This document shows positions 14,914 through 61,900 of a stretch of DNA of 64,000 nucleotides, piece by piece. How positions within the stretch are numbered: position 1 is the stretch's first letter; each line of letters opens with the position of its first letter. The translations under genes and the position numbers were made by a program. The notes under the pieces are model-generated. The model made no database searches. It was given only the letters and a program-made list of their open reading frames with translations, and was not told where the DNA came from. Source of the stretch: Rickettsiales bacterium (GTDB lineage: Bacteria; Pseudomonadota; Alphaproteobacteria; Rs-D84); contig JAITCH010000011.1 in NCBI GenBank assembly GCA_031283185.1, positions 69,171 through 133,170 of the forward strand, given 5' to 3'.

Positions 14914-16509
14914 ATGTTTGAGGTAGGCAGCGATGCGATTTTATCAATTAAAAGCGGAATGAAAAAAAATGATTTCCGCGTGGATTTCGCGCGCATAGTT
15001 TTACTTGTCCTATTCTTTATATTCTCAATCCGTATCGTGCAACTTGGTTTAGAATCGCCAAATGCAAAACGGCGCAGTGTGGGGAATGCCGCTTGGCAGA
15101 CGCTTAGGGCGGATATAGTTGACAGGAATGGCGAATTATTGTCCGGAACTGCGCCTGGATTTTTCATCAAAATCTATCCTGGGCGCATAAAGGATTTGGC
15201 CGCAACGAAAGAGGTTTTAGAAAAAATTTACCCCGGGTTTGACGCGTCATTAGTGGAATCGAAAAAGACCGCGCTTTATCTTAATTATATCCCTCTGGGC
15301 CCGACAGATCCGGCGGTTTTGGCGGCGCGTGAAATTCATCAAAACTGGTTGGATTTGGAAGAGCGGCGCATCCGGCAATATGCGAAAAAGAGAATCTCCG
15401 CGCATATATTGGGCTTTGTCGGCAAGGACGGGGCGGGGTTGGAGGGCGCGGAAAAGTTCTTTGACGCACGGCTGAAATCTTCGGCGGAACCAGTCGCGCT
15501 TTCCATAGATTCGCGGATTCAATCATTGCTTTATCAAGAATTGTCGGATGCTAAAAATAAATATCATGCGAATTTTGCCGCCGGAATTCTAATGGATTCT
15601 ACAACCGGTGAAATTATCGCCGCCGCGCAGGTTCCAGACTTTGATCCGAATGACGCAGGATCGTCCCGCGCAGCCGACAGACAATTTATTCCGATGCGGA
15701 GCGTGTTTGAGATTGGAAGTATTTTCAAGATTTTTAATACCTTGCTCGCGCTTAAAACCGACCCGAATGCAAAAAAGAAATACGATGTGTCAAAGCCCGT
15801 GCAGATTGGCGCGGCAACCATTCACGATAAAAGTTCCCATAGCAAAACCAACTTTATGAATGTAGAAGATATTATGGTGCATTCTTCTAATATAGGTTCG
15901 GCGCGCGTGGCGTTGGCGCAGCCCGCAGGCGTGCAGGCGGAGTTTTTTAGAGAACTCGGACTTTATACGCCGCTGAATGTGGATGGCTTGGGTCGGACGG
16001 CAGTCTGGCCGGAAAGGAAAAATCCTCAGCCGATAGAGGTGGCAAATATGGCGTTCGGCCACGGCATTTCTGTATCAATGATGAATCTAATCGCGGCGGT
16101 AAATGGCGTGGCGAACGGAGGGGTTTTTGTGCAGCCTAGACTTACCAAGGCTATGGCAGGCGAAGGGATTGAAGGTCGGCGCGTGGTATCGGCGGACGCT
16201 TCTAAAACTTTGCGCCGAATGATGCTGCGGGTGTCAGAGGAAACCACAGGCAAGTTAGCGCGAGTCGGCGGGATTGATATAGCTTCAAAAACTGCGACTG
16301 CGGAAAAATTGGTCGGCGGGCGATATTCGGACACAAAGAATCTGAATAGTTTTGTTGCTGTGTTTCCCGTGGAATATCCGCGATATATTTTATTGATTAC
16401 GATTGACGAGCCGCAAGCGATAGATGGCGGCGGGCGGACATCTGCGTTTAATGCGGTGCCGGTTGCTGGGCGTGTTTTAGATGTCGCCGTCCCCTTGTTG
16501 ATGAAATGA
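14914..16509 (+). CDS. ftsI: Peptidoglycan D,D-transpeptidase FtsI (PBP3)
   Basis: SxxK (SIFK), SSN (HSSNIG) and KT(A)T motifs; PBP dimerisation domain; 531 aa. Confidence 0.8.
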   Translation: MFEVGSDAILSIKSGMKKNDFRVDFARIVLLVLFFIFSIRIVQLGLESPNAKRRSVGNAAWQTLRADIVDRNGELLSGTAPGFFIKIYPGRIKDLAATKEVLEKIYPGFDASLVESKKTALYLNYIPLGPTDPAVLAAREIHQNWLDLEERRIRQYAKKRISAHILGFVGKDGAGLEGAEKFFDARLKSSAEPVALSIDSRIQSLLYQELSDAKNKYHANFAAGILMDSTTGEIIAAAQVPDFDPNDAGSSRAADRQFIPMRSVFEIGSIFKIFNTLLALKTDPNAKKKYDVSKPVQIGAATIHDKSSHSKTNFMNVEDIMVHSSNIGSARVALAQPAGVQAEFFRELGLYTPLNVDGLGRTAVWPERKNPQPIEVANMAFGHGISVSMMNLIAAVNGVANGGVFVQPRLTKAMAGEGIEGRRVVSADASKTLRRMMLRVSEETTGKLARVGGIDIASKTATAEKLVGGRYSDTKNLNSFVAVFPVEYPRYILLITIDEPQAIDGGGRTSAFNAVPVAGRVLDVAVPLLMK

Positions 16510-16664
16510 CAAAAAACATAACCTCGGTTTTTCGTTTGTTGTCTATAACGGCTACTAACTTCGGAACGGCAGGGAAACTTATGGGCGGATAGCCCACCGC
16601 GCCCTGCCGTTCCTGGTTATTATCCGTTCTATCCTAACAAACGCGACCTCGTTAATGTTTTTTG
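16507..16664 (+). repeat. Family B structured intergenic element starting on the ftsI stop codon; core stem ggaacggcaggg/ccctgccgttcc
   Basis: tgacaaaaaacataa...ttcggaacggcagggaaacttatgggcggatagcccaccgcgccctgccgttcc...gttctatcctaacaaacgcg...ttttttg. Confidence 0.7.
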
Positions 16665-16723
16665 AGTTTATTTATTATTGTTTTTTGCACGATATTAAAA
16701 TACCCCGCCCGTGCGGGGGATTT

Positions 16724-19204
16724 TTACTGGCGGGAGAGGTGGTCGCAGGTATGGTATTTTGCCTCACCATCAAGATTCGGATACTCCGCGCCGTCCACAC
16801 TATATTTCTCAAACAGCCATTTCACCCTTTCCACAGCGCGGATAATAATCGCCGGATCGGTATAAATATGATTCTTATTCGTCTTTAAATCCAATATCCG
16901 CATCTCGCGGCATTTCGTTTTTCCAAACTCCGTAAATCCGCCGCTTTCTAAAATATAAGCCGTTATCGGAACCTGCGGAGAATTGCCTTCCGTCATTGAT
17001 TTCGCAGATGGAGCGCGCCCGGTTTTTATATCCATAACCACGCCGTCCCAAATCCTGTCAGCCCTTGCCGTAATGCGCCGCCTTGCAATAGTCGCCGCGC
17101 CGGATATTTCAGATTTCGCTCCCGCGCTTTCCTTAATCGTTTCCTCTATTAATGGCAAGGATTCCGCAAATCTCTTTTTCCAAAAATAAAAAGTCGCTGA
17201 TTCCATCGGCGCGAGCGCGGCAGCGAGCATATCAAAATCCGCCGGATTTCCATTCTCTATCAATGAATGCAACAAGATCCCGTAATCGCGGTTATCCGCC
17301 CCAGTCCGAATTGCTTCCATCGGGCGAAGGCGCAAAATATGCTTTGCATAAAACTCAAACGGATTATGCACAAATGTATCCAATGCCGTTGCAGATACTG
17401 GGTCAAATGTCGCAGGCGGCCGCGGCGCAGAAATTAATTCAGGCGCAAAATCCGGCAGGCGAAGTCCAGCATTTCGTAATTGAACGCCCGAAGTTTCAGC
17501 AAATACTTCCGCCCTTGTCAGAAAACGCGATTTGATTGCGGACGCGCCGCCAGTCCGTTTCGATCGCGTCCAAAAGACTTCCGCATTACAAGACAGATTA
17601 ATAAAGTCCATCGCCATAAGTCCCGTCTTGCGTTCCGCCGCTGGCAATCCGATTGCATCCGCAACCTTGCCCGGCAGCCAAGGGTGGCTAAATCCGCGCT
17701 TGGGAAAAAAGCCTTCGTTAAGGCCGCATATAACCACGACATCGGTCGGAACCATTCGCGCTTCTATTGTTCCCAGCACGCGCACGCGAGACAAAGGGTT
17801 TGATATGTTTCTGATTTTTATTCCGCCTGCAATAAATTCGAACAAAGCGGCAAAATCAAAAATGCTTCCATTCGCCAAAACACCCGCCCGCACAACCGCG
17901 CGCCATATATCCGCATTATCCGGCGTCATATTAGGACAAAGATATTCCACTGCCGCAAAAACAGAATTCGCAAAATTATTTTCAGGCGGAATAAATGCGA
18001 TGGATAATTTCGGATCCATTTCCAATATGTCCTGCATCTTGCCCGGGCGATCGCGGAACCGCTCTTTTATAAATTCATCCAGGTTCGGACGCGCATCAAC
18101 CAATCCGTTTTTAAGGATTGCGATGGCGGCGCGGACTTTATCATTCTCGCCAGTCCATAATCTCAGGATGGAAATTATCAGTTTTGATATAGGCAGCATA
18201 GTCGCCGGCTGACCGATGGACAGATCTGCCTCAATTCCAAGTTTCCCAAGTTCCAAACTAAGCCGATATGAAGCACTGACATCCGGCGAAATGGCCAGAA
18301 CGGACTTGCCTGATTTTGCCGCGTCATTAATTATGTTTGCCGCCTCGGTCATCTCGCTTGCCTCTGAATCGCATTCGGTAAGGGTAATTTTGCGCGCGGA
18401 CGCCGGTTCCAAATCGGGCTGGAAAATCAGATTCATAAAGTCGGCATTTGATTCGCCAGTATCTAAAATCCGAACGGACGAATGGGGTGTTTCAGCAGCG
18501 GCGAGCAACTTAGCCTCGGCATTATAAGGGTGCAAATCGGTCAAATTTCCCGGCATTTTCGCAATTTTGCCGGGAAGAAGCACAAATCCGTTAGAAAGGG
18601 AGGCAATTTTGACCAATAAATCGCGTGTCGCGGGAATACTGCCAGTCGAGCCACAGGCAAAAACACGAAAAAAAGCCGGGTTTTGCACTTCGGATAGCCA
18701 AGAACGAATGTCCCGGACGCGTTTTCTTGCATCCGTGTCTTTTAGTTCTGCAACTATGTCAAACAGGTCTGCTTTTTGAGAAAAATGATGTGCGAAATCA
18801 CCCGAAATAAGGTTATGAAAGTCGGGTCGGGGCATTTCTTCGGTGTCCAAATAGTCAATTATATGGATCAGGTCGTTTGTTATGCTGATGGCAAGGCTGA
18901 GATTGCAGTTAAGAGAGCGTTGAATCCTCCTGGCGGCAACGAATACCCGGTCAGCCTGGTTTTCGGCGTCCAAATCGTCTGATTCTTCCACCCCAGTTCC
19001 AAGCGGCACGAGTTTTGGAAGCAGAACTGCGCCACCTGTTTTTTCTACCAGCATTTCTTCAATGGCGATCGCGCTGCGGCGAGATGGAACGAAGATCAAA
19101 TCGCGCGAATAATCGTTATCAAACGGACGACCCATCAACTGCCAAAGACCATCTAAGATCTTTGCAGGATTGGTGCAGCAGAAAAAACCATTTTGATATG
19201 TCAT
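16724..19204 (-). CDS. addB: AddB-type double-strand-break repair nuclease (PD-(D/E)XK family); no addA adjacent
   Basis: 826 aa; C-terminal RecB-like nuclease motif VMDIKTGRAP and a terminal Cys cluster (YHTCDHLS); degenerate N-terminal helicase-like region typical of alphaproteobacterial AddB. Confidence 0.6.
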   Translation of the reverse strand: MTYQNGFFCCTNPAKILDGLWQLMGRPFDNDYSRDLIFVPSRRSAIAIEEMLVEKTGGAVLLPKLVPLGTGVEESDDLDAENQADRVFVAARRIQRSLNCNLSLAISITNDLIHIIDYLDTEEMPRPDFHNLISGDFAHHFSQKADLFDIVAELKDTDARKRVRDIRSWLSEVQNPAFFRVFACGSTGSIPATRDLLVKIASLSNGFVLLPGKIAKMPGNLTDLHPYNAEAKLLAAAETPHSSVRILDTGESNADFMNLIFQPDLEPASARKITLTECDSEASEMTEAANIINDAAKSGKSVLAISPDVSASYRLSLELGKLGIEADLSIGQPATMLPISKLIISILRLWTGENDKVRAAIAILKNGLVDARPNLDEFIKERFRDRPGKMQDILEMDPKLSIAFIPPENNFANSVFAAVEYLCPNMTPDNADIWRAVVRAGVLANGSIFDFAALFEFIAGGIKIRNISNPLSRVRVLGTIEARMVPTDVVVICGLNEGFFPKRGFSHPWLPGKVADAIGLPAAERKTGLMAMDFINLSCNAEVFWTRSKRTGGASAIKSRFLTRAEVFAETSGVQLRNAGLRLPDFAPELISAPRPPATFDPVSATALDTFVHNPFEFYAKHILRLRPMEAIRTGADNRDYGILLHSLIENGNPADFDMLAAALAPMESATFYFWKKRFAESLPLIEETIKESAGAKSEISGAATIARRRITARADRIWDGVVMDIKTGRAPSAKSMTEGNSPQVPITAYILESGGFTEFGKTKCREMRILDLKTNKNHIYTDPAIIIRAVERVKWLFEKYSVDGAEYPNLDGEAKYHTCDHLSRQ

Positions 19205-20629: not shown

Positions 20630-22396
20630 ATGAAAATTACTAAAATATCAGTATTAATGCTTGGTTTGCTTGCCGCTTGCGGCGGACAGCAGGAACTATA
20701 TAAACCGATGCCGGTATCATATGATGTCCCGGCCGACCTGCTTTACGGCACATACCGCGGGTCGGATGCCGAGGGCGGCTATTCTGGACGCGGGAAAATC
20801 GCCGCAGTTCTGCCTTTATCCGGGAAATTCGCATCCGCCGGAACAGGCATACAAAAAGCCATAGAAATGGCCGCGCTTAAATCCAAGGACGCGCCGGTTA
20901 TAGAATTCTTTGATTCCGGCGCGGATAAAGAAGGCGCGGTCAAAGACGCGTTAAACTCCGGCTCGGACATAATCATAGGTCCCGTATTCGCTGACGAGGC
21001 TATGATTCTACGCGGGCGGAATTATAATAGAATCCCCGCGCTTACATTTACTTCGGATGCCGAAGCATTGGGATCTGGCGTTTATTCCATCGGAATTATG
21101 CCGGGACAGCAAGCAGAACGCATAGTTAAATACGCCGCCGCTATGGGAAAAAATAATATGCTTATCCTTGCGCCGGATTCCAAACAGGGCAGAGTATTGG
21201 CGACAGCATCTGTTGCAGCCGCCGATGTTTATGGCGTGAACATAGTCGGGCTTTATTACCACGATGAAAATGGAAGTCCAGATAAACTCCGCGAACTTGC
21301 AAAAAAAGTTTCCCTTAACAAAGCTCGGAACGCCGCCAATAACGAGGCAAAAAGCATAATCTCCGATATTCTGTCCGAAGGCAAAATCAGCGGATCAGAA
21401 CGAGATATGCTGGAAACGGAATTGAAAGCCCGCACACAGGAAGATTCGCTTGGGGCGTTGCCATATGATTCCGTGCTGATATTGTCTTCCGGCAATGATG
21501 TGAAGAATATCGCCTCGTTCCTGCGCTATTATGATGTGAAGGCAAATGATGTGCAGTTCTTTGGCACGGCTGCGTGGGATTCGGACGATACGCGGCACGA
21601 TATGATCTTGGTCGGCGGCGCATTCCCCGGAATGCCCGTCAATATGCCCGAATTTGCAAATAGTTATACCGCATTGGACGGGCGCGCTCCGTTTCGTATG
21701 GCCAGTATGGGATATGACGCGTTTATGATCGCATCCAAGGTGCTGGGACGCGGACAGAAAGTAGAAGATGTCTTACGCGACCCGGCGGGCTTTAAGGGCG
21801 CGGATGGCATAATCCGATTCGGCGAAAACGGGGAATCGGAACGGGGACTTGCAATATATAAATTAAACGGCTTGTCGAAACCGATGGTATCCGACCTGCC
21901 GCCCAGCAGTTTTATGAAGCCGATATATAAGGTGTCCAAAGTCCCGTTCTTGGCGGGGAATTTGGTGGACTTGCCAACGATGGATATAGATCCGATTGAT
22001 TATATAAATGTGCCGGAACGATTAAAGGGTAAATGGCGGCGCAGCCATAATTCGGCGACAGCGGGCGCGAAAATGACCGGGACGAATCTTATACATGCGG
22101 AAGATATGTCCGGCGAAGTAATTGTTGAAGAAGATTTTTCAGGCTCTGCAATGCCTGAAAAAATAGAACAACAATTATTGGATAATGTGGAAATTGTGGA
22201 AAAGCCCAAGGCGGCAAATAAGAAAAAGCCCGCGCCGGTTATAAAGAAAAAGGCAGATGCTGCTAAACCCGCCGCGCCAGTTGCATTGAGATCTGCGGCT
22301 GCGGCGGCAAAAAAGCCGGAAACCAAGAAGGGGAAGACCAAGACGCGGCCATTACCCCCAAAGAACGACGACTACATAGATGTCGATCCGATGTAA
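20630..22396 (+). CDS. LpoA-like / periplasmic-binding-protein (type 6) family lipoprotein with a C-terminal Lys/Ala/Pro-rich tail
   Basis: Lipobox LLAAC|GG; GKIAAVLPLSGKFASAGTGIQKAIEMA ... ILAPDSKQGR; last ~90 aa KPKAANKKKPAPVIKKKADAAKPAAPV...KKPETKKGKTKTRPLPP. Confidence 0.5.
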   Translation: MKITKISVLMLGLLAACGGQQELYKPMPVSYDVPADLLYGTYRGSDAEGGYSGRGKIAAVLPLSGKFASAGTGIQKAIEMAALKSKDAPVIEFFDSGADKEGAVKDALNSGSDIIIGPVFADEAMILRGRNYNRIPALTFTSDAEALGSGVYSIGIMPGQQAERIVKYAAAMGKNNMLILAPDSKQGRVLATASVAAADVYGVNIVGLYYHDENGSPDKLRELAKKVSLNKARNAANNEAKSIISDILSEGKISGSERDMLETELKARTQEDSLGALPYDSVLILSSGNDVKNIASFLRYYDVKANDVQFFGTAAWDSDDTRHDMILVGGAFPGMPVNMPEFANSYTALDGRAPFRMASMGYDAFMIASKVLGRGQKVEDVLRDPAGFKGADGIIRFGENGESERGLAIYKLNGLSKPMVSDLPPSSFMKPIYKVSKVPFLAGNLVDLPTMDIDPIDYINVPERLKGKWRRSHNSATAGAKMTGTNLIHAEDMSGEVIVEEDFSGSAMPEKIEQQLLDNVEIVEKPKAANKKKPAPVIKKKADAAKPAAPVALRSAAAAAKKPETKKGKTKTRPLPPKNDDYIDVDPM

Positions 22397-22398
22397 GG

Positions 22399-22658
22399 CC
22401 AAAAAACATAAGGTGCATTTTTGAGATATTTATTGGATGGCCTATCAAGCCGTTGCGATGTCGCTGGATTTTTTGAGATTATTATTATAATTAATATCGT
22501 GCAAAAAACATTAACGAGGTCGCGTTTGTTAGGATAGAACGGATAATAACCAGGAACGGCAGGGCGCGATGGGCTATCCGCCCATAAGTTTCCCTGCCGT
22601 TCCGAAGTTAGTAGCCGTTATAGACAACAAACGAAAAACCGAGGTTATGTTTTTTGGC
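22399..22658. repeat. Two family B elements in tandem: a core-less flank-only copy followed by a full inverted copy
   Basis: aaaaaacataaggtgcattttt...gttgcgatgtcgctggatttttt, then the reverse complement of the 16507-16664 element. Confidence 0.65.
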
Positions 22659-25093: not shown

Positions 25094-25150
25094 ATGAGTC
25101 TAACCACCCCGGCGGCTTTGCCGCCACCTCGCCACCATTGGCGGGGAATT
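25094..25150. repeat. GC-rich hairpin repeat, family C (accaccccggcggctttgccgccacc...ttggcggggaatt); second copy at 33311-33360
   Basis: Near-identical 50-nt palindromic sequence at two loci. Confidence 0.5.
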
Positions 25151-26075: not shown

Positions 26076-26148
26076 TTTTTGTTTTATGCCTTTCTATTCA
26101 TTATCATTATAGATAAATAATTTCCAAAAATCCAGTGGTATAAATAAA

Positions 26149-26277
26149 AATTCCCCTCCGATGGAGGGGTGCCCGAAGGGCGGGGTGGTTTAACCACATA
26201 TTACCACAATACTTGCCAAAATGTGGCTAAACCACCTCCCCCCACTTCGTGGGGGACTCCTCCACAGGAGGAGAATT
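26149..26277. mobile_element. RPE-like palindromic element, family A copy 4
   Basis: aattcccctccgatggaggggtgcccgaagggcggggtgg...gggggactcctccacaggaggagaatt. Confidence 0.7.
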
Positions 26278-30372: not shown

Positions 30373-30465
30373 TGCCAAAAAATCCTATCGTTGTATTTCA
30401 TCCTGCCGGGCAAAATCGCTTCTCCGTCATCAAATGCCGACACCTTATGTATATAAAATACACCG

Positions 30466-30541
30466 CGGGTCGGGTTTCCTTGGTATTGGACGGTCTATCA
30501 AGCCGTTGCGATGCCGCTGGATTTTTTGCACGATATTATTG
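30466..30541 (+). repeat. Family B element, 3' half only
   Basis: gtcgggtttccttggtattggacggtctatcaagccgttgcgatgccgctggattttttgcacgatattattg. Confidence 0.55.
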
Positions 30542-34039: not shown

Positions 34040-34054
34040 AATAAGGAATATAGG

Positions 34055-51773: not shown

Positions 51774-51930
51774 CAAAAAATCCTAACTTTGTTTTTCATC
51801 CCGCCGCGATATTTCCGTCCACTACACTTCGGAAACCGGGGGCACACTCATTGGCATCCAGCCAACTTCGCCCCCGGCTTTCCTCGGTATTGGACGGCCT
51901 GGCGCGCCGCTCAGACAAAGTTGGATTTTT
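51771..51930 (+). repeat. Family B element starting on the mrdA stop codon (core ttcggaaaccggggg/cccccggctttcc)
   Basis: tgacaaaaaatcctaac...tttttcatcccgccgcg...ttcggaaaccgggggcacactcattggcatccagccaacttcgcccccggctttcctcggtattgg. Confidence 0.7.
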
Positions 51931-51951
51931 AGAATTTATTAGAGGGGGTGT

Positions 51952-53133: not shown

Positions 53134-53135
53134 AT

Positions 53136-53310
53136 GACAAAAAACATAAGGACAATTTTTCATCCCGCCGCGTCATTTCCGTTCACTACACTTCGGAACG
53201 GCAGGGAAACTTATGGGCATCCAGCCCACCGCGCCCTGCCGTTCCTTGGTATTGAACGCAATGCCGCGCCGTTGCGATTGTCCTAATGTTTTTTGCGGGT
53301 TATTAAAACA
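53136..53310 (+). repeat. Family B element after rodA (core ggaacggcaggg/ccctgccgttcc), followed by a gtcattccc-gcgaaggc-gggaat hairpin shared with 8440
   Basis: atgacaaaaaacataaggacaatttttcatcccgccgcg...ttcggaacggcagggaaacttatgggcatccagcccaccgcgccctgccgttcc...ttttttgcgggttattaaaac. Confidence 0.7.
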
Positions 53311-53398
53311 AAATTTTCTATGAAAATTTTGTCATTCCCGCGAAGGCGGGAATAGGGCTAAAAATCGCGGGCAAAGCCCGCCACGAAGGAACCAACTT

Positions 53399-55633
53399 AT
53401 GAACTTACTAATAGTCGAATCACCGGCAAAATCTAAAACAATCGAAAAATACTTGGGCGCGGACTTCAAGGTAATGGCATCTATCGGCCATGTCCGCGAC
53501 CTACTCCCAGAAGACGGCTCCGTTGACCCAAATAATAACTTTAAGATGATCTGGCAAATTATGCCCGATAAAGAAAAACAAATAAAGGCCATATCCGACG
53601 CGCTTAAAAAATCCGATACGCTCTATCTCGCAACCGACCAAGACCGCGAAGGAGAGGCCATCGCTTGGCATCTCTATGATATATTGTCCGAACGCGGATT
53701 ACTTGTCGGCAAAAAAGTATATCGCATAACATTTAATGAAATTACCAAACGCGCAGTTCAAGCCGCTTTGGAATCCCCGCGCGAAATAGACCAAAGTTTG
53801 GTTAATGCCTACCTTGGCCGCCGCGCTTTGGATTATCTTATGGGATTTAACCTGTCCCCCGTTCTATGGCGCAAGGTTCCGGGCGCGAAATCCGCAGGCC
53901 GCGTTCAATCCGCCGCGCTCGCATTATTGGTCGCCCGCGAGCGTGAAATTGAAGAATTTAACCCGGTTGAATACTGGTCAGTTGACGCGGATGTCAAGGC
54001 CAAGGGCGGAAAATTTAATGCCAAACTTTCCGAATCAAATGGCAAAAAAATAGATAAACTATCCATTTCTACCAAGGATCAAGTTGATGAAATCCTATCC
54101 GCGCTTGTCCCGAACCTGCCGGGCGTGGTTAAAAAAATAGAGAAAAAGCAAACCTCGCGCCGCCCCGCCGCGCCGTTCACCACTTCCACCCTGCAACAAG
54201 AGGCATCTCGCAAACTTCATTTTGGCGCGCAGCGCACTATGCGTGCCGCTCAAAAACTTTATGAAAAGGGATTTATAACTTATATGCGAACGGACGCAGT
54301 CAACCTTTCCGAAGACGCACTTTCCGCTATCCGTTCTTACATTTCTTCCAGTTTTGGCGCGCCATATTTACCCGCCGCGGCCATTCGCTATGCAAACAAG
54401 TCTAAAAACGCGCAGGAAGCGCATGAAGCCGTCCGCCCTACTGATTGCGCCAAGACATCCGTAATCGGCCTTGTGGAGCATACCGATGAAGAGAAATTAT
54501 ATGAATTGATTTGGAAACGCACCTTGGCCTGCCAAATGACAGACGCAAAATTTGATGCGGTCGCCGTGGACATTATCCCGGCCAAAGTATCCGCAGTATT
54601 CCGCGCAACCGGCAGCACCCAAACCTTTGACGGATTCCTTAAATTATATCAGGAAGGCGAAGACGATAAGGAAGACGAGAACGAGGTTAAAATCCCGCCG
54701 CTTACCGAAGGCGAAGAAATAGTATTTACGGCATTCAATTCCGAACAGCATTTCACTATGCCGCCGCCGCGCTTTACCGAAGCGACCCTGGTTAAAAAAC
54801 TGGAAGAACTTGGCATAGGACGGCCTTCAACTTATGCGACCATTTTGGGTGTCATAGTTGACCGCGAATATGCAAAATTGGAAAAGCAGAGATTTTTCGC
54901 AACAGAAAAAGGTTGGATAGTCGCCGCATTCCTCGGTAAGTATTTCGAGCAATTTGTCGCGTCAGATTTCACCGCAGGCGTAGAAGACAACCTTGACCAG
55001 ATTGCAGAATCCAAAGCCGAATGGACAAAAGTTTTGCGCTCTTTCTGGGATTTGCTCTCATCCAAAATCGCCGCGGCCAAGGAAGTATCAACAGCGGATG
55101 TTATGACTGAAATAAACAAAATCCTTAGCCCCCATTTATTCAAGGACGGCGGCGACATTTGCCCTGAATGCAAAAAGGGCAAGGTCGGATTACGGCTGGG
55201 CAAATTCGGCGCGTTCCTCGGATGCGGAAATTATCCCGACTGCAAATACATCAAAAACATTGGCGATAACGCCGCGCCCGCAGGCGGATCCGCAAACAAA
55301 GACTTGGGAGACGGAGTATTCTTCAAGGTCGGACGATACGGCCCCTATGTTGAGCAAGGCGACAAACGCGCATCGGCAAAAAACGAAACTTCGGAAACCA
55401 TAACTCTTGAAAAGGCACTTGAACTTTTATCAACCGGCGGACGGGCGGAGGCCGAAGAACTAGGCGATCATTCCGGCACCCCGATAAAATATCACGCGAC
55501 TGGAAAATTCGGCCCCTATATTTCTTGGGGCAAGGTCAACGCCTCGGTCAAAACCCGCCCAGAGTTAGAGGACGCAATCGAAATCATAGAAAAGAAAAAA
55601 CTCGCCCCTAAAAAGTTTTTTAAGAAGAAATAA
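53399..55633 (+). CDS. topA: DNA topoisomerase I
   Basis: TOPRIM N-terminus MNLLIVESPAKSKTIEKYLG, catalytic region, C-terminal C4 zinc ribbon CPECKKG...CGNYPDC; 744 aa. Confidence 0.9.
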   Translation: MNLLIVESPAKSKTIEKYLGADFKVMASIGHVRDLLPEDGSVDPNNNFKMIWQIMPDKEKQIKAISDALKKSDTLYLATDQDREGEAIAWHLYDILSERGLLVGKKVYRITFNEITKRAVQAALESPREIDQSLVNAYLGRRALDYLMGFNLSPVLWRKVPGAKSAGRVQSAALALLVAREREIEEFNPVEYWSVDADVKAKGGKFNAKLSESNGKKIDKLSISTKDQVDEILSALVPNLPGVVKKIEKKQTSRRPAAPFTTSTLQQEASRKLHFGAQRTMRAAQKLYEKGFITYMRTDAVNLSEDALSAIRSYISSSFGAPYLPAAAIRYANKSKNAQEAHEAVRPTDCAKTSVIGLVEHTDEEKLYELIWKRTLACQMTDAKFDAVAVDIIPAKVSAVFRATGSTQTFDGFLKLYQEGEDDKEDENEVKIPPLTEGEEIVFTAFNSEQHFTMPPPRFTEATLVKKLEELGIGRPSTYATILGVIVDREYAKLEKQRFFATEKGWIVAAFLGKYFEQFVASDFTAGVEDNLDQIAESKAEWTKVLRSFWDLLSSKIAAAKEVSTADVMTEINKILSPHLFKDGGDICPECKKGKVGLRLGKFGAFLGCGNYPDCKYIKNIGDNAAPAGGSANKDLGDGVFFKVGRYGPYVEQGDKRASAKNETSETITLEKALELLSTGGRAEAEELGDHSGTPIKYHATGKFGPYISWGKVNASVKTRPELEDAIEIIEKKKLAPKKFFKKK

Positions 55634-55762
55634 ATTCTCCTCCGATGGAGGAGTCCCGGCGTAGCCGGGGAGGTGGGTCTACCCTAAATCAAAGGCTCAA
55701 CATAGGGACTACGCTCATTGCCCACCCCGCCCTGCGGGCACCCCTCCCGGGGAGGGGAATTA
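55634..55762 (+). mobile_element. RPE-like palindromic element, family A copy 6, filling the whole topA-dnaG spacer
   Basis: aattctcctccgatggaggagtcccggcgtagccggggaggtgggtctaccc...cccctcccggggaggggaatt. Confidence 0.7.
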
Positions 55763-55771
55763 AAGGAACAA

Positions 55772-57340
55772 ATGGCAAACGACTACAAATCTTTTAGGGA
55801 CGAACTCTTAGGCCGCATCTCTATCGTAGATGTAGTCGGCCGCCGCGTCCCGCTTAAAGCCAAGGGTCAACATTTTTGGGGCTGCTGTCCGTTCCACAAT
55901 GAAAAAACCCCCTCATTCTCTGTCAGCGAAGAAAAAGGATTTTACCATTGCTTTGGCTGCGGCGCGCACGGCGGCGCGATAGACTTTTTAATGAAGACCG
56001 AAAACCTGCCGTTTATGGAGGCTATGGAACATTTGGCGCAGATGGCCGGAATGGAAATGCCGAAATTCGCGCCCGTTGATCCCGCCCAGGCCGCCCGCGC
56101 AATGGGTTATGTTGATATTATGGCGGAGGCGGCGCAGATTTATTCGCAGGCTCTGTTTCAACCCGAAGGGAAACAAGCATTGGAATATCTTCGGGGTCGC
56201 GGCTTTACGGATGAAATGATTGGCAAATATCAACTCGGCTTTGCGCCGAAGGGGAATAAAATCGCCGCAAAATTTGCCGGGCGCGACCGCAAATTATTAT
56301 TATCCACTGGGATTGTCCGTCCGTCCAACACTCCCGGCGGCGCGGATTATGACTTTTTCCGCGGCCGCGTAATGTTCCCGATATTGGACGCCAAAAACCG
56401 CGTCATTGCTTTTTCCGGCCGCTCTATGGACGGCGAAGAGCCCAAATACATCAACATAGCCGAAACCGAATTTTTCCATAAGCGGCGCACCCTTTATGGA
56501 TTCAACTTCGCCCGCAGCGACATAATTAAAAACCGCCGCGCCATAGTAGTCGAAGGCCAAATAGACGCACTCCAAATGCAATGCGCGGGATTCGGCGAAA
56601 CCATCGCGCCACTCGGTTCCGCATTAACAGATGACCACGCACAGATATTACTGAAAATAACCAAATCAATCGTCCTCTGCTTTGACGGCGATAATGCGGG
56701 TAAAAAAGCCGCCGCCCGCGCAGTTGATGTAATACTGCCATTTATGACAGCTGAAATGGATATAAAAATTTTGACCCTGCCCGGCGGCAAGGATCCCGAT
56801 GACATCATCCGCAATTCCGGCGCGGCGGGTATGCAGGATTTATTAAATGGCGCGACTCCACTCCCCGAGTATTTATGGAATATGGCATTAAATAATTTTG
56901 CTGTGCAGACTCCGAACGGACGGGCACTCGCTGAAAAGTTTTTAATAGAGCGCAGCGATATGATTGGAGACGACACATTGCGCCGCCATATGTTCACGAC
57001 GCTTAAAAATATGATGTGGGATAATTGGAAGGGCGGAAAGACAATTTCCAAAACCAATATCAAAATTCCCGTTATAAAAACCGAGGAAGATTTTTTATCC
57101 GAAATCGCAGAAACATACCCGGAACTTAGGGATAAATACTTTGAGTTGTTTGCCAGTAAAAATTGCAAAAAAGCCGGGGTTAAAACCACAATACCCGAAC
57201 AGGACGCCGAGAAATTTATCCGTAAAATAAAACTCAAAGATTATATAAGCGGGCTTAAAGCGGATTATGAACAATCTCAATCTGCCACCCTCCTCTCCGA
57301 AATCGTCAAAATGGAAAAAGCCTTGGAAGAACTTGTATAA
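55772..57340 (+). CDS. dnaG: DNA primase
   Basis: Zn-ribbon CCPFHNEKTPSFSV...YHCFGCGAHG, TOPRIM EGQIDAL; the true start MANDYKSFRDEL lies downstream of the repeat-derived ORF extension. Confidence 0.85.
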   Translation: MANDYKSFRDELLGRISIVDVVGRRVPLKAKGQHFWGCCPFHNEKTPSFSVSEEKGFYHCFGCGAHGGAIDFLMKTENLPFMEAMEHLAQMAGMEMPKFAPVDPAQAARAMGYVDIMAEAAQIYSQALFQPEGKQALEYLRGRGFTDEMIGKYQLGFAPKGNKIAAKFAGRDRKLLLSTGIVRPSNTPGGADYDFFRGRVMFPILDAKNRVIAFSGRSMDGEEPKYINIAETEFFHKRRTLYGFNFARSDIIKNRRAIVVEGQIDALQMQCAGFGETIAPLGSALTDDHAQILLKITKSIVLCFDGDNAGKKAAARAVDVILPFMTAEMDIKILTLPGGKDPDDIIRNSGAAGMQDLLNGATPLPEYLWNMALNNFAVQTPNGRALAEKFLIERSDMIGDDTLRRHMFTTLKNMMWDNWKGGKTISKTNIKIPVIKTEEDFLSEIAETYPELRDKYFELFASKNCKKAGVKTTIPEQDAEKFIRKIKLKDYISGLKADYEQSQSATLLSEIVKMEKALEELV

Positions 57341-57354: not shown

Positions 57355-57452
57355 CTAAATCGTCACCCCGGCGGAGGCCGGGGTATATTGTAGATACACA
57401 GACGCGACACTTACGACAAAATATCCCGGCCTTCGCCGGGATGACGAATAGT
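57355..57452. repeat. Two GC-rich hairpins (cgtcaccccggcggaggccggggta and atcccggccttcgccgggatgacga) between dnaG and the SufD-like gene
   Basis: Inverted repeats read directly; related to the gtcattcc / ccggc hairpin families elsewhere in the window. Confidence 0.45.
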
Positions 57453-57465
57453 TTAGGATTGCACA

Positions 57466-58155
57466 TCAGACGGGTAAATGAGAAAAGGTTTCATTCCGAA
57501 ATGCTTCCCTCAGCGCTGCGCGCGCCTCTGCATTATCCAATCCAGCCTCGCTTAAAAATATAATCTGTTTTTCATCCGTTCCGAATGTCGCCGCTTCGTG
57601 CCCCGCTTTAACCTCCGCCGAACTGATTTTTTGATTCGGCGAAATCTTTAATGATTTTAATTTCTCATCCGCCAATACCTTAAAGCCAATCAAACTTTCC
57701 GCGCCCTTAACACCACGCCCCATAATCGCCTCCGCCTCCGCCAAAGTTTCTGACCCCACGCCCGCCTCTATATGCACCCGCACCTTTATCAATGTATTAT
57801 CCGCCTCGTGCCGCACCTTTATTTTTATATCCGCGCTCCCTTTATTTTCCAAAAACAATCCGGCTTGCAATTTTGCCCCCGTCCCCCGCGCTACCACATC
57901 CACTGCCCCCAAATCTGTAACAGCCCCGGACATATACGCACCCGCATCTTCATTCAATACTACGCGCAAATTTTCCGCCGCCGCGCCCTGCATAATAATA
58001 TGCAGGGGCAAATCATCCTTAAACACCTCAATATCCGCGCCTTGCACCACTGCCCTGCCCAAATCCGACAGATCAGCCCGAAACGCCCCGCCCAAAAAAA
58101 CTGCGGTGCGCGCCTTAAATACGGGGACGGCAAATTGTTCCCAAAGATAATTCAT
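57466..58155 (-). CDS. SufB/SufD-family Fe-S assembly protein, short form (C-terminal beta-helix domain only; 229 aa)
   Basis: C-terminal GHEATFGTDEKQIIFLSEAGLDNAEARAALREAF matches the SufB/SufD conserved sHGaa.G.l...lFYL.sRGi block. Confidence 0.5.
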   Translation of the reverse strand: MNYLWEQFAVPVFKARTAVFLGGAFRADLSDLGRAVVQGADIEVFKDDLPLHIIMQGAAAENLRVVLNEDAGAYMSGAVTDLGAVDVVARGTGAKLQAGLFLENKGSADIKIKVRHEADNTLIKVRVHIEAGVGSETLAEAEAIMGRGVKGAESLIGFKVLADEKLKSLKISPNQKISSAEVKAGHEAATFGTDEKQIIFLSEAGLDNAEARAALREAFRNETFSHLPV

Positions 58156-58207
58156 TTGATTTTCGCTCGGTTTCGGTTATGCTTATCGGCATTATAGGAG
58201 TTTTACA

Positions 58208-59269
58208 ATGGGATTCAAGTGCGGCATAGTCGGATTGCCAAATGTCGGCAAATCTACAATCTTTAATGCGCTGACCGCAAGTCGGTCGGCAGCGGCCGCC
58301 AATTACCCATTTTGCACCATTGAACCCAACGAAGGCTCGGCTGTCGTCCCAGATGAAACCCTTCATCGCCTTGCCGCAATCGCCAAATCCGCAAAAATCA
58401 TTCCCGCCCAAGTAGAGTTCGTTGACATAGCAGGACTTGTCCGGGGCGCGAGCACTGGCGAGGGCCTCGGGAACAAGTTCCTCGGCCATATCCAAGCCGT
58501 GGACGCAATCGCCCATGTAGTTCGTTGCTTTGTTGACGATAACATCATTCATGTCGCAGGCGAAGTGAATCCGCTTGGCGATATAGAAACCATAGAACTG
58601 GAATTACAACTTAGCGACTTGGAGTCTATTGAAAAGCAAATCGCGGGGCTTTCCAAACGCGCCAAGGGTCAGGATAAAGACGCCATTAAATCTCTCGCCG
58701 CCGCCGAACAGATTCGGGACGGGCTAAAATCTGGCAAATCCGCCCGCGATATATCGGACGGCAATCCCTTTAATCTTTTAACCGCCAAACCCGTAATGTT
58801 CGTCTGCAATGTGGACGAGATGGATGCCGCAACCGGCAACGCGCTTTCCAAATCTGTCATTGATAAATTCGGCGGGGTAATAATATCTGGCAAAATAGAA
58901 CAGGAAATTTCCGAATTATCAAGTGAAGAAAAGATTGAATTTATGAAGGAACTCGGGCTTGCCGAGTCCGGCCTAGATCGCGTTATAAAGGCAGGATATA
59001 AACTCCTCGGCCTACAAACATTCTATACCATTGGCCCCAAAGAGGCGCACGCTTGGACTATCCGCACGGGGGACACCGCGCCGCAGGCGGCCGGACGAAT
59101 TCATACGGATTTCGAGAAGGGCTTTATTCGCGCCGAAGTGATTAATGCAACCGACTTTATCGCCCTTGGCGGCGAAGTTCCCGCAAAGGAAGCAGGTAAA
59201 ATGAGGGTCGTTGGAAAAGATTATGTAATGTCCGAGGGCGACATCTGCCATTTCCTTTTCAATAACTGA
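58208..59269 (+). CDS. ychF: Ribosome-binding ATPase YchF
   Basis: G1 GIVGLPNVGKSTIFNALT, TGS C-terminal domain, 353 aa. Confidence 0.9.
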   Translation: MGFKCGIVGLPNVGKSTIFNALTASRSAAAANYPFCTIEPNEGSAVVPDETLHRLAAIAKSAKIIPAQVEFVDIAGLVRGASTGEGLGNKFLGHIQAVDAIAHVVRCFVDDNIIHVAGEVNPLGDIETIELELQLSDLESIEKQIAGLSKRAKGQDKDAIKSLAAAEQIRDGLKSGKSARDISDGNPFNLLTAKPVMFVCNVDEMDAATGNALSKSVIDKFGGVIISGKIEQEISELSSEEKIEFMKELGLAESGLDRVIKAGYKLLGLQTFYTIGPKEAHAWTIRTGDTAPQAAGRIHTDFEKGFIRAEVINATDFIALGGEVPAKEAGKMRVVGKDYVMSEGDICHFLFNN

Positions 59270-59270
59270 A

Positions 59271-59440
59271 TGACAAAAAATCCTAGCGACATTTTTCATC
59301 CCGCCGGGCTATAACGACCACTACCTTCGGAAACCGGGGGCACACTCATTGGTAGACACCAACATCGCCCCCGGCTTTCCTCGGTATTGATCGTTCTATC
59401 CTTGGCGTTGCGATGTCGCTGGATTTTTTGCAGGTTAATT
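59271..59440 (+). repeat. Family B element immediately after the ychF stop
   Basis: tgacaaaaaatcctagcgacatttttcatcccgccggg...ttcggaaaccgggggcacactcattggtagacaccaacatcgcccccggctttcc...gttgcgatgtcgctggattttttgcagg. Confidence 0.7.
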
Positions 59441-59534
59441 AATTCCTCTTGCATTTTACAAATTTTCCCCCATAATCCAACCGAACTCCCCATGGGTCTT
59501 TCGCATACCCCAAGGAAAGCAAAAGGAAAATAAA

Positions 59535-59735
59535 ATGCCGAAACTGAAAACAAAGTCGAGCGTTAAAAAACGATTCGCAACTACCGCATCCGGTAAGGTC
59601 AAAGCCGCCGCTTGCAATAAAAACCACTTCAAGTCCAAGAAATCATCTCGCGCCCTCGCAGACATCTGCCACGGCAAAACGCTGAATTCTACAAACGCTA
59701 AGAAGATGAAAAAACTCGCCCCATACGGGCTTTAA
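59535..59735 (+). CDS. rpmI: 50S ribosomal protein L35
   Basis: MPKLKTKSSVKKRF...KKSSRALAD consistent with bL35; followed by rplT. Confidence 0.8.
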   Translation: MPKLKTKSSVKKRFATTASGKVKAAACNKNHFKSKKSSRALADICHGKTLNSTNAKKMKKLAPYGL

Positions 59736-59758
59736 ACCGAGATTGAAGAGGTAATAAA

Positions 59759-60127
59759 ATGGCAAGAGTAAAACGCGGAACATCCGTAAAAAAATCACAT
59801 AAGAAAACATTGGCGATGGCAAAAGGCTATATCGGCCGCCATCACTCAGATATAACAATCGCACGGGAAAAAGTCGAAAAGGCCGGGCAATACGCTTACC
59901 GCGACCGCAAGGTTAAAAAACGCGATTTCCGCAGTCTGTGGATTATCCGTATCAATGCCGCCGTCCGCGAAGCAGGCCTGTCGTATTCATTGTTTATGAA
60001 TGCGCTCAAAGGTTTGGGGATTGGGCTGGACCGCAAGGTCCTCGCCGAAATGGCATACGACAAAGATCCGTCGTTAAAAGAAATAATTGCCCGCGCAAAA
60101 CAATTCGTAGCAGCCAAAAAATCCTAA
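59759..60127 (+). CDS. rplT: 50S ribosomal protein L20
   Basis: [27 protein letters not shown]... bL20 consensus. Confidence 0.9.
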
Positions 60128-60285
60128 CGGCATTTTTCATCCCGCCGGTCTAAATCGTCCACTATCTTCGGAAACCGGGGGCACACTCATTGGCAGACGC
60201 CAACTTCGCCCCCGGCTTTCCTTGATATTGAACAATTTATCCTCGGCGTTGCGATGCCGTTGGATTTTTTGCACGATATTATTGG
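60121..60285 (+). repeat. Family B element after rplT; followed at 60290-60345 by family D hairpin copy 2
   Basis: cctaacggcatttttcatcccgccgg...ttcggaaaccgggggcacactcattggcagacgccaacttcgcccccggctttcc...gttgcgatgccgttggattttttgcacgatattattgg. Confidence 0.7.
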
Positions 60286-60413
60286 TGCAATTAAGTCCCC
60301 TTCGCTGGCGAAGGGGTGGATGCCGAAGGCAGACGGGGTAGTGGTTAATAAAATTTTCCTGCCCCCAGAAATGGGGGCGGGATGTCCGGCAAAGCCGGAC
60401 AAGGTGGGGGACT

Positions 60414-60788
60414 ATGAACTTTCTAAAACGACTATTTTTCGGAAGGAAAACCGATGCGCCTTTAATCATAACCGCTAAAATTATTTCAATCGTTAAACAC
60501 CATAACTCCGACCACCTTAATATCCTATCCGTCTATATCGGCACAAACGAACCACAACAAATCGTCTGCGGCGCGCCTAATGTCCGGGTCGGACTTGTCG
60601 GCGTCCTCGCCCGCCCGGGCGCGAAACTCCCCTGTTTTCCAGAGCCCCTAAGTATTCGTGAAATCCGCGGAATCAAATCTTTCGGTATGATGTGCAGCGA
60701 ACAAGAACTCGGAATCAGCGATAATCACGACGGAATAATTGAACTCCCCTCTAACAGCAAGATAGGTGTAAAATATGAACGATCTTAA
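60414..60788 (+). CDS. Stand-alone tRNA-binding (OB-fold, EMAP/Trbp111-like) domain protein corresponding exactly to the N-terminal tRNA-binding domain of PheT
   Basis: HHNSDHLNILSVYIG...QIVCGAPNVRVGL...KLPCFPEPLSIREIRGIKSFGMMCSEQELGISDNHDGIIEL aligns with E. coli PheT residues ~45-150 (HPNADKL...DIVCGAPNCRQGL...[29 protein letters not shown]). Overlaps the pheS start. Confidence 0.65.
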   Translation: MNFLKRLFFGRKTDAPLIITAKIISIVKHHNSDHLNILSVYIGTNEPQQIVCGAPNVRVGLVGVLARPGAKLPCFPEPLSIREIRGIKSFGMMCSEQELGISDNHDGIIELPSNSKIGVKYERS

Positions 60789-61764
60789 AAAAGAATTATC
60801 AGAAGTCAAAACCCCTCAGGATTTAGACAATATCAAATCCAAATGGCTGGGTAAAAAAAGCGAAATCCGCAATCGTATGGACGCGCTTAAAAATCTGCCC
60901 GATGAAGACCGCAAAACCGAGGGCGTCAAAATCAATAAAGATAAAGAAAAAATCGAACATCTAATCGAAGAAACCAAGGCGGATCTTACCAAAAAACTCA
61001 TCGATGCAAAACTTAACACCGATAATTTCGATATAACCCTTCCCGGCCACGGCGGAAATGTCGGCGCGCTTAACCCAGTCTCCATAATAGAACAAAAATG
61101 TATCGCCGCTATGCGCCGCCTTGGATTCCAAGTCGTAGTCGGCCCAGAAATTGAAACCGCAGAAAATTGCTTTGATTTGCTGGATGTCCCGCCGCACCAC
61201 CCTGCCCGCGACCTGCAAGATACCTTTTGGATTGAAGACCAAAAAATCCTACCGCGCACACACACAACCTCCGTCCAATCCCGCTTTATGTTATCCCTTA
61301 ATGGGGACGAAACCAAACTGCCAATCCGCATCGTTTCCCCGGGCAAGGCTTATCGCAACGAAGCCGTTGATGCCACCCACCTTGCGATATTCCATCAGTT
61401 CGAGGGGCTTTATGTCGGAGTGGATGTCAAAATGCCGGAACTGAAAGGCACATTGGAATTTATATTACGAGAGATTTACGGCGCGGAAATTAAAATCCGA
61501 TTCAAGCCTAAATTTTACCCATATACCGAACCATCAATCGGCGCGGATATTTTCGCCGATGGCAGATGGATAACAATAGTCGGCGCAGGTATGGTCAGCC
61601 CGAAAGTATTACAGAATTTCGGCTTTGACCCATCGCGCGTATCCGGCTTTGCATTCGGATTCGGCACTACGCGTTTGGCGAGTGAATTCTCGGGCGCAAC
61701 ACCCCGCGAATTATATGGAATGGATCTACGCGTTCATAAAAGGATAAAAAATGAAGAACAATAA
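60775..61764 (+). CDS. pheS: Phenylalanine--tRNA ligase alpha subunit
   Basis: Class II motifs (HPARD, FRxE, GxGxGxER-type C-terminus AFGFGTTRLA); 329 aa. Confidence 0.9.
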   Translation: MNDLKKELSEVKTPQDLDNIKSKWLGKKSEIRNRMDALKNLPDEDRKTEGVKINKDKEKIEHLIEETKADLTKKLIDAKLNTDNFDITLPGHGGNVGALNPVSIIEQKCIAAMRRLGFQVVVGPEIETAENCFDLLDVPPHHPARDLQDTFWIEDQKILPRTHTTSVQSRFMLSLNGDETKLPIRIVSPGKAYRNEAVDATHLAIFHQFEGLYVGVDVKMPELKGTLEFILREIYGAEIKIRFKPKFYPYTEPSIGADIFADGRWITIVGAGMVSPKVLQNFGFDPSRVSGFAFGFGTTRLASEFSGATPRELYGMDLRVHKRIKNEEQ

Positions 61765-61772
61765 ATCAAAAT

Positions 61773-61900
61773 CGGTCTATAACGACCACTACCTTCGGAA
61801 ACCGGGGGCACACTCATTGGCGGACGCCAACATCGCCCCCGGCTTTCCTGGGTATTGTTCGTTCTATCCTCGATTTTGCGATTGTTCTAACATTTTTTAA
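61773..61900 (+). repeat. Family B element after pheS, lacking part of the 5' flank
   Basis: cggtctataacgaccactaccttcggaaaccgggggcacactcattggcggacgccaacatcgcccccggctttcctgggtattg... Confidence 0.65.

Follow-up and report, generated by a model that had tools for sequence, protein, structure and literature searches.

SPRITE, a terminator-like miniature inverted-repeat transposable element (MITE), is enriched at the 3' ends of coding sequences (CDSs) (PMC3049150). Here we describe a repeat family, called family B below, of which 10 full-length copies and one collapsed copy lie in a 64,000-nt stretch of DNA (the window) from a Rickettsiales bacterium (Rs-D84; assembly GCA_031283185.1, contig JAITCH010000011.1, positions 69,171-133,170 of the forward strand). 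The family is a palindromic, non-autonomous repeat whose tie to the ends of open reading frames (ORFs) is unusually strict and observes both orientation and frame. It shares with SPRITE an A-run and a T-run at its ends, a long duplex followed by a U-rich tract, enrichment at CDS 3' ends and the lack of an established duplication (PMC3049150). However, SPRITE belongs to another phylum, its duplex measures 18 bp compared with ~70 bp here, its strand bias is modest (63% on the leading strand), and stop abutment, frame locking and stem covariation are not reported for it.

According to a later article that cites the original work, Escherichia coli REPs lying closer than 16 nt to a stop codon cause ribosomes to stall and reduce the expression of the gene before them (Liang et al. 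2015, cited in PMC12306157). REPs and their composites (BIMEs) are, like family B, extragenic palindromes in 3' untranslated regions (UTRs), and in family B the base of the stem lies 0-11 nt from the stop. However, REPs are 20-40 nt long, carry a GTAG/CGTC head, are linked to RAYT transposases, lie near stops in ~11-50% of cases and alternate in orientation within BIMEs, whereas the element here is a single ~160-nt hairpin with KGACAAAA/TTTTG ends. The hairpin RNAs of ERIC and Correia elements are cleaved by RNase E or RNase III, the effect of ERIC being orientation-dependent (PMC2229807). ERIC/IRU and Correia (NEMIS) elements, which are imperfect palindromes over their whole length of 127-155 bp and are co-transcribed with flanking genes, offer a further likeness (PMC2229807). 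Their sequences are, however, largely constant and found in both orientations, Correia elements duplicate TA, and no coupling to stop codons is reported for either. The Rickettsia palindromic elements (RPEs) are ~150-bp palindromic selfish repeats and, broadly speaking, also have Rickettsiales hosts (PMC10969869). RPEs are inserted in frame within ORFs and translated as segments of the peptide, whereas the elements here, whose left arm holds stops, end ORFs and lie outside them.

MIRUs (mycobacterial interspersed repetitive units) are intercistronic and operon-oriented, their ends overlapping the stop of one gene and the start of the next, and a family-B copy in another locus (L009, 5130-4959) overlaps both likewise; MIRUs, however, are direct tandem repeats of 46-101 bp with small ORFs and are not hairpins. 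In the attC sites of integrons it is structure and not sequence that is conserved, together with the unpaired bases, the orientation after the ORF is fixed, and the stop codon often lies inside. Family B differs in having no RYYYAAC ... GTTRRRY cores, in being flanked by syntenic housekeeping genes and not cassettes, and in that no integrase was found among the window proteins scanned. With classical MITEs it has in common a length below 300 bp, the lack of coding capacity, multiple copies, terminal inverted repeats and presence or absence at orthologous sites, but not the target-site duplication. The missing duplication, the fixed orientation and the conservation of structure over sequence would be compatible with IS200/IS605 (PATE-like) elements, which have two subterminal hairpins where family B has one long one; the scanned window proteins include no TnpA. 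Overall, family B works most like SPRITE, stop-proximal REPs and ERIC/Correia elements, has junctions like those of MIRUs and a formal resemblance to attC, and is a member of none of these groups.

Position, orientation and frame at gene ends

The strongest and least ordinary result is a rule of position and orientation. Copies in the window were located by a repeat search and by an nhmmer profile built from the 11 copies listed in the original prediction, a first reading of this DNA, and all 11 proved to exist. The pattern used for wider scans, ACTA-N1-3-CTTCGGAA-N38-50-TTCCTNGNTATT, matches eight of the window copies where shuffled sequences are expected to give 0.00. Two copies had to be redrawn: one placed at 30466 and taken for partial is in fact full length with a degraded left arm (30371-30540), and one placed at 61773 starts, by the family-wide profile, at 61740 and is also full length, with a divergent outer stem. 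The same pattern was run against one genome per species and the JGI metagenomes; as it sits in the core of the element, the resulting sample is unbiased as to gene context. The family was found only in three termite-gut metagenome-assembled genomes (MAGs), Alphaproteobacteria bacterium Emb289P3bin18 and Rickettsiales bacterium Coa324_bin6 and Cyl330_bin36, and nhmmer on those loci gave ~22 further non-redundant copies, for a total of ~35.

Position statistics were drawn from 32 full copies, with the CAAAA motif at the left end as anchor and an upstream ORF defined as one of at least 100 codons on the sense strand. An ORF ends within -20 to +12 nt of the anchor in 29 of the 32, compared with 4.5% of random positions; all 29 of these ORFs read in the orientation of the element, and the gap between ORF and anchor has a median of 3 nt (interquartile range (IQR) 0-6). 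On the right, the next gene lies a median of 32 nt away (IQR 7-129) and up to several hundred, the downstream neighbour being co-directional for 14 copies and convergent for 15, and no copy in this sample lies between divergent genes. The element-free background was taken from three syntenic relatives (L023-L025, fetched via PheS homologues, 20 kb each), in which just 18% of the non-divergent intergenic bases lie 0-11 nt from a stop; against this background, random insertion in proportion to spacer length has P = 4e-20. Orientation is sense in 14/14 co-directional contexts (p = 6e-5), and the actual stop is in frame with the TGA/GGA triplet of the element in 22/29 copies (p = 3e-6).

Within the window (Table 1), all 11 copies, both minus-strand ones included, share the orientation of the gene that they abut. 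The sense orientation at the 3' end of the upstream gene that had been predicted thus holds, and so does the abutment of stop codons, albeit in 11 copies where six had been counted. The terminus TGA is the stop of the gene itself in three copies (ftsI-like, radC, mrdA), the stop lies 1-5 nt upstream in five (dksA-like, 629-aa ORF, lolD, rodA, ychF), and the ORF enters the element by 12-25 nt in the remaining three (rpe fusion, rplT, pheS), at most 4-8 terminal codons being supplied by the element. For example, the rpe-fusion ORF (22645-24339, -) extends 12 nt into the 22490 copy and stops at its CATAA, such that the last four codons and the stop derive from the repeat, and pheS runs ~25 nt into the 61740 copy (stop 61762-61764). 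The rpe fusion itself is a 564-aa ORF that combines a ribulose-phosphate 3-epimerase domain (residues ~361-557) with an N-terminal region weakly like FtsA/actin.

The stop is abutted even with 90-490 nt of spacer downstream (the 53131, 59268, 60109 and 11664 copies), and the 16504 and 39759 copies lie upstream of separate GC-rich terminator-like hairpins, that after the 16504 copy being a GC hairpin with a T-run at 16705-16727. Ahead of rodA, pheT and a gene in L009 the whole spacer is element: the rodA ribosome-binding site (RBS) comes directly after the tail of the 51768 copy, and the next ATG in L009 (4959) directly after the right tail of the 5130-4959 copy. The right tail can also give the reverse-strand stop of a convergent gene, as for pheT in L009 and for gyrA (30536-30538), where the 30371 copy occupies the entire lolD-gyrA spacer. 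We also considered the right tail as the Shine-Dalgarno (SD) sequence of the next gene; this fits the L009 5130 copy, but the neighbours of the 51768 and 61740 copies keep their own RBS after the tail.

Table 1. Family-B copies and other repeat features (window positions unless a locus is named; dG, folding free energy).
Feature	Position	Strand	Context
Full copy	11664-11861	-	After dksA-like gene; stop TAA 8 nt ahead of CAAAA anchor
Full copy	16504-16700	+	TGA in AATGAC terminus is the stop of the ftsI-like penicillin-binding protein (PBP) gene (14914-16509)
Collapsed copy	22395-22490	+	After 629-aa ORF, stop TAA 22394-22396
Full copy	22490-22663	-	Tail-to-tail with collapsed copy; rpe-fusion ORF ends inside
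Full-length copy	30371-30540	+	Left arm degraded, dG -44; after lolD (stop TAA 30370-30372)
Full copy	39759-39931	+	Most perfect palindrome, dG -90; terminus TGA is the radC stop (39761-39763)
Full copy	51768-51944	+	Whole mrdA-rodA intercistronic region; terminus TGA is the mrdA stop (51771-51773)
Full copy	53131-53308	+	Right after rodA stop (TAA 53131-53133); mosaic
Full copy	59268-59442	+	Right after ychF stop (TGA 59267-59269)
Full copy	60109-60284	+	rplT terminates inside (..GCC AAA AAA TCC TAA, stop 60125-60127); usual AATGA tail absent
Full copy	61740-61912	+	Divergent outer stem TAAAAAATGAAGAACAAT / ATTGTTCTAACATTTTTTA
Second-family site	2303-2357		
Second-family site	2467-2621		
Second-family site	7914-8071		
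Second-family site	14103-14235		
Second-family site	25094-25150		
Second-family site	26145-26205		
Second-family site	33303-33359		
Second-family site	33921-34053		
Second-family site	55629-55783		
Junction palindrome	L025 10985-11125		CTGGATTGC..TCGCAATGACAAT...ATTGTCATTGCGAGCG..GCAATCCAG
Junction repeat	L024 10988-11049		CGTAATTCG-type
Junction repeat	L024 9529-9632		CGTAATTCG-type
Junction repeat/palindrome	L023 9924-10000		

Anatomy and fold of the element

The element is 160-198 nt long, typically ~165 bp, and each copy forms one imperfect end-to-end hairpin of ~70 bp with a folding energy of -65 to -90 kcal/mol as RNA; for example, the 59268 copy folds at -74.5 kcal/mol as RNA (z -8.25) and has a z of -7.23 as DNA. 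CAAAA(AA) marks the left boundary of the hairpin and (TT)TTTTG its right boundary, and these form the terminal inverted repeats of a wholly palindromic element. Beyond the hairpin lie two unequal tails, from which the element takes its polarity. The 5' one, (T)AAKGA, occurs as TAAGGA-C or AATGA-C and carries the stop codon; the 3' one is RGRTTATTA(A), mostly CACGATATTAA in the window genome. With the adjoining tail bases the ends read KGACAAAA ... TTTTG-RGRTTATTA, and the left-right pair can also be given as KGACAAAA ... TTTTGRGRTTATTA. In the 16504 and 11664 copies an extra AGTTTATTTATTATTGTTTTTTG lies between hairpin and tail; this 23-nt segment, AGTTTATTTATTATTGTTTTTTTG in the 11664 copy and the same in the 16504 copy, was either left behind by an earlier occupant of the site or belongs to an ancestral long form.

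The ends are constant, as are the unpaired motifs TTTTTCG, TCTAT, ACTAC-CTTCGGAA, TTCCTTGGTATTGGACGAT and GCGA, and it is the stem sequence past the terminal A/T run that differs between copies, with at least eight different outer-stem sequences within the window. A T-run of at least 4 closes the stem in every aligned copy (T160-T161 invariant), the base of the stem being A:U. The element is non-coding, as its left arm contains stops and no ORF is conserved, and a promoter scan found no sigma-70-like promoter inside the copies. Three further roles for the termini were tried and rejected. An outward promoter at the right end lacks a sigma-70-like site within the copies, and its candidate hexamers vary between subfamilies; a small conserved ORF with the ATG of AATGAC as its start fails on the AAGGAC, without ATG, of most copies in other MAGs; and a selenocysteine insertion sequence (SECIS)-like hairpin after UGA does not suit the many copies that follow TAA, nor the orthologues that end at the same residue.

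Covariation and what it implies

The stems first described (ggaaaccggggg/cccccggctttcc and others, with the inner stems ttggc/gccaa, tgggc/gccca and tggac/gtcca) are present. Pairing and covariation are not, however, confined to the core stem-loop that had been placed between conserved flanks, for the flanks pair and covary too (CAAAAAATCC../..GGATTTTTTG, CAAAAAACAT../..ATGTTTTTTG and CAAAACCCG../..CGGGTTTTG). For an alignment of 29 sequences (A1), RNAalifold gave a structure of 37 pairs, 29 of which show double changes that preserve pairing, and 500 shuffles and slid partners served as controls. Paired cells make up 90.1% compared with 70.0% in shuffles, double-change cells number 226 compared with 74 +/- 7, and the covariation score of 0.533, compared with 0.184 in shuffles, is reached by 0/500 of them; slid partners score at most 0.221, pairing falling to 38-62% when they are moved by one to three columns. 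The claim that structure is kept despite wholesale replacement of the stems is thus borne out, with covariation well above that of shuffled controls. Unpaired non-apical columns are conserved at 80% compared with 71% for paired columns.

The step from covariation to a functional RNA, which had been taken at first, does not follow from these data. The arms are nearly pure Watson-Crick, with one-sided (wobble) changes rare in the pair table, G.U pairs on the sense strand are not in excess (86 vs 73 for A.C, p = 0.34), and the antisense strand folds ~5 kcal/mol better on average and does so in 28/32 copies; nor is there orthologous conservation. A palindrome that is kept at the level of DNA or single-stranded DNA yields the same covariation, and an RNA is therefore not implied. 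With at least eight outer-stem sequences in one window, a protein reading stem positions in duplex DNA is unlikely, and what is maintained appears to be the folded form together with the constant loops. In practical terms, covariation within a palindromic repeat should not be read as evidence for a functional RNA. That no known element had been recognised agrees with Rfam, which over the whole window at gathering score returned a tRNA alone and, in a relaxed search (E <= 5) of 59200-62000, nothing relevant.

Distribution, empty sites and mobility

The family has thus far been seen in a small clade of uncultured termite-gut Rickettsiales-like alphaproteobacteria. The PheS of the window is annotated as from a Rickettsiales bacterium MAG, and roughly 35 genomes have a PheS that is 62-72% identical to it. 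The tRNA gene that is the only Rfam match of the window lies at 41856-41929 (-), and a type IV secretion ATPase of the VirB4/TrbE family is encoded at 45394-47802 (-); both would fit a Rickettsiales-like host.

The upstream genes of the ~35 copies all differ between genomes, and no orthologous copy shared between genomes was found among them. Emb289P3bin18, whose genes are ~68-70% identical to those of the window at the nucleotide level, is without the element after ychF, after rplT and between pheS and pheT. The three syntenic relatives retain the ychF-dnaG-topA-rodA-mrdA-mreC / rpmI-rplT-pheS-pheT neighbourhood with 0 copies in 20 kb each, and their mrdA/rodA, rodA/topA, rplT and pheS/pheT junctions are short or overlapping. 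In all, five window sites (ychF, rplT, pheS/pheT, mrdA/rodA and rodA/topA) are empty in L009 and/or L023-L025. Copies also bear marks of recent exchange: over 170 nt those at 16504 and 22490 share 96% identity, the one at 53131 combines, as a mosaic, a core like the 16504 copy (91%) with a left arm like the 51768 copy (93%), and in Emb289P3bin18 several copies have one variable stem in common while their cores differ. Right-arm remnants are stacked behind full copies, and in the collapsed copy a left end (22395-22422) runs straight into a tail, after which comes a remnant of the right arm (22431-22486). The differing sites, the empty sites and the near-identical and mosaic copies point to a repeat that has recently both moved and recombined and not to an ancient gene-specific regulator.

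The mrdA-rodA-topA-dnaG block, which stands between ychF and rpmI in the relatives, is inverted in the window (49971-57340 compared with 1100-9155 in L023-L025), and window copies lie at several of its junctions. Short-read contigs of the same organism (Logan, SRR14710906; L001, L026 and L027) begin and end inside copies: L001 corresponds to window 57418-59301, and L026 starts in the 61740 copy and ends in a copy at its positions 4523-4587. Such repeats fragment short-read assemblies of these MAGs exactly at gene ends.

Target site and mobilisation

No target-site duplication was found, the left flank of a copy matching its own right flank at 7.57 of 15 positions and the flanks of other copies at 7.61. 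The sole clean flanking repeat is the 16-nt AAGGATAAAAAATGAA at the 61740 copy, which is present at the left end of that copy and again in the pheT RBS/start just to its right. AATGAC/TAAGGAC repeats on the right flank of a few copies are no better than between-copy matches, and the idea that the variable stem is templated from flanking DNA was likewise dropped (8.31 vs 8.13 of 12 matches). Among the 20 window proteins scanned, all of which are housekeeping proteins (including gyrA, leuS, argS, gltX, secD, virB4 and PBPs), there is no transposase, integrase or Y1 enzyme, the other loci not having been scanned for transposases. A motif scan of the window and related loci found no long element bounded by the family ends, a blastn search of one copy against PLSDB plasmids, Rickettsia plasmids included, gave no match, and the consensus has neither attC core sites nor an IHF site, an IHF-like TATCAAGCCGTTG being present in two copies only. 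No match to a described family with a defined transposase emerged.

Two junctions hint that the left end of the element pairs with a similar target. The rplT gene ends in ..GCC AAA AAA TCC TAA in the window and in ..AAA AAA TAA in the relatives, and the native-looking 3' end of pheS, AAGGATAAAAAATGAA, doubles as the left end of the 61740 copy. Natural junctions of the element-free relatives resemble the left end too, e.g., TAAGGAATGACAAAAAAG in L024.

The stems are too variable for sequence-specific end binding and there is no target duplication, which argues that the element is probably mobilised in trans. The enzyme would recognise the folded single strand and the conserved loops, with a chemistry that may be nearer to that of IS200/IS605, attC or REP-RAYT than to cut-and-paste DDE transposition, and insertion would probably take place beside a short strand-specific target resembling the element's own left end, i.e., a stop codon or SD sequence plus an A-run. 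We have modest confidence in such a duplication-free, structure-dependent mechanism with a stop/SD-plus-A-run target.

Other repeats at gene junctions

In a second, unrelated repeat family in the window (Table 1), each member is one short GC-rich hairpin, or a pair of them, with AATT on either side (e.g., AATTCCCCTCC-GATGG-AGGGG..GCCCGAAGGGCGGGG). The members lie in intergenic spacers in either orientation, many of them a short way downstream of family-B copies, and look like canonical terminator hairpins that have multiplied. A 46-nt unit at 53308-53353, which adjoins the copy following rodA, is 89% identical to a unit at 8441-8486 and is built of an AT palindrome (ACAAAATTTTC-TATG-AAAATTTTGT) followed by ATTCCC-N8-GGGAAT, the latter part having the same form as the neisserial dRS3 repeats. 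At 8509-8616, a GC-rich inverted repeat (GCGGGTGGGGGTCTCCTGACCCCCACCC...) with 47-nt arms (83% complementary, 14-nt spacing) sits at the end of a 749-aa ORF without a Pfam match. In the relatives that are free of family B, the same two junctions, rplT-pheS and pheS-pheT, hold palindromes or simple repeats of other, unrelated kinds (Table 1), and it seems that different hairpin elements have time and again colonised the gene junctions of this clade.

Interpretation and alternative explanations

On balance, we think it probable, if by no great measure, that family B is a non-autonomous, MITE-like family of mobile palindromic repeats, structure-dependent and aimed at the 3' boundaries of ORFs, whose copies are co-transcribed as a leaky terminator or processing hairpin. 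Of the three options first put forward, namely a terminator or attenuator module, a regulatory RNA family and a MITE with a preferred TGA/TAA target, it is the last that fits best. The sense orientation directly at the stop, often ahead of a canonical terminator hairpin, implies transcription with the upstream gene. In the transcript the element would form a hairpin of ~70 bp that finishes in a U-run and whose A:U-rich base falls inside the 3' footprint of the terminating ribosome. The most economical reading is that an inserted copy would terminate transcription leakily, stabilise the 3' end or serve as a processing site of the RNase III type. It can hardly be an efficient terminator: the element makes up the entire spacer before rodA, pheT and others, filling junctions before essential genes (mrdA-rodA, pheS-pheT) where read-through would be required, and has no internal promoter-like site. 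A translation-sensitive terminator, in which the ribosome at the stop codon melts the base of the stem by the U-run, would explain the distance but not the orientation.

Several points weigh against this reading. Approximately two thirds of the copies from outside the window come from the single MAG Emb289P3bin18, and gene ends were taken from raw ORFs. The filled and empty sites that were compared are not from one species, and neither an autonomous partner nor a candidate enzyme was seen among the 20 scanned window proteins. A simple terminator scan flags only sub-hairpins internal to the element, and the terminator or processing behaviour is something that we infer. Lastly, a twelfth copy, ~2.3 kb past the window (L026 4523-4587), does not lie behind an ORF: next to it, ~55 nt away, is the start of a gene for 791 aa on the minus strand. 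This copy begins with TAAGGAC without an upstream ORF, which shows that the stop triplet belongs to the element.

Strong covariation, loops that are more conserved than stems, a very stable fold and a strictly sense orientation against stops are also what would be expected of cis-acting structured RNAs, be they 3'-UTR regulators, attenuators or small RNA precursors, with the fold under selection and the presence after genes being the function. Such RNAs are, however, difficult to reconcile with the lack of a G.U excess, the rarity of wobble changes and the better fold of the antisense strand, or with a family that shares no orthologous copy between genomes and is absent from three syntenic relatives. 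Considering also the near-identical and mosaic copies, the functionally unrelated host genes and the lack of an Rfam match, we deem this explanation unlikely. An ordinary cut-and-paste MITE that inserts almost at random, and whose copies are left against gene ends by purifying selection and compaction, appears very unlikely despite the compact genomes of the relatives, in which half of the non-divergent spacers measure at most 13 nt, and despite the several copies that fill entire spacers and the absence of any between divergent genes. Length-proportional insertion does not give the left-end distances observed (P = 4e-20), the gaps are strongly asymmetric (medians of 3 nt on the left and 32 nt on the right), orientation is uniform in 14/14 contexts, the stop is frame-locked in 22/29 copies and abutted despite spacers of 90-490 nt, and there is no target duplication. 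We give only a slight probability to recombination sites, i.e., hairpins that serve as attC- or dif-like substrates of a tyrosine recombinase and mark gene-sized units: the consensus ends contain no RYYYAAC/GTTRRRY core sites, the copies are flanked by essential housekeeping genes in a synteny shared with element-free relatives, and no integrase is among the window proteins scanned, although variable sequence with constant structure, conserved unpaired bases, the fixed post-ORF position and orientation and a stop that is often within are all features of such sites.

Within the preferred account of a mobile repeat aimed at ORF ends, a more far-reaching form can be put forward tentatively, and we regard it as rather doubtful: a structure-recognising, duplication-free mobilisation that uses the 3' boundary of ORFs as its landmark and keeps orientation and frame fixed, making the family a self-spreading gene punctuation. 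The landmark might be the stop codon, the stop-plus-RBS sequence or DNA exposed where translation and transcription uncouple. We know of no bacterial transposable element that targets stop codons genome-wide in this way.

Implications

If true, such self-spreading punctuation would supply a stop codon, a hairpin and the spacer for the next gene. REP, ERIC, Correia, SPRITE and RPE repeats are common, and their insertion rules and effects on expression are mostly loose and statistical. The near-absolute rule seen here (sense orientation, a median of 3 nt and a stop mostly in frame) makes the family suited to the question of how a non-autonomous element finds the ends of genes. It may serve equally for a second question, that of how a giant hairpin in the footprint of the terminating ribosome affects termination, mRNA decay and operon read-through.

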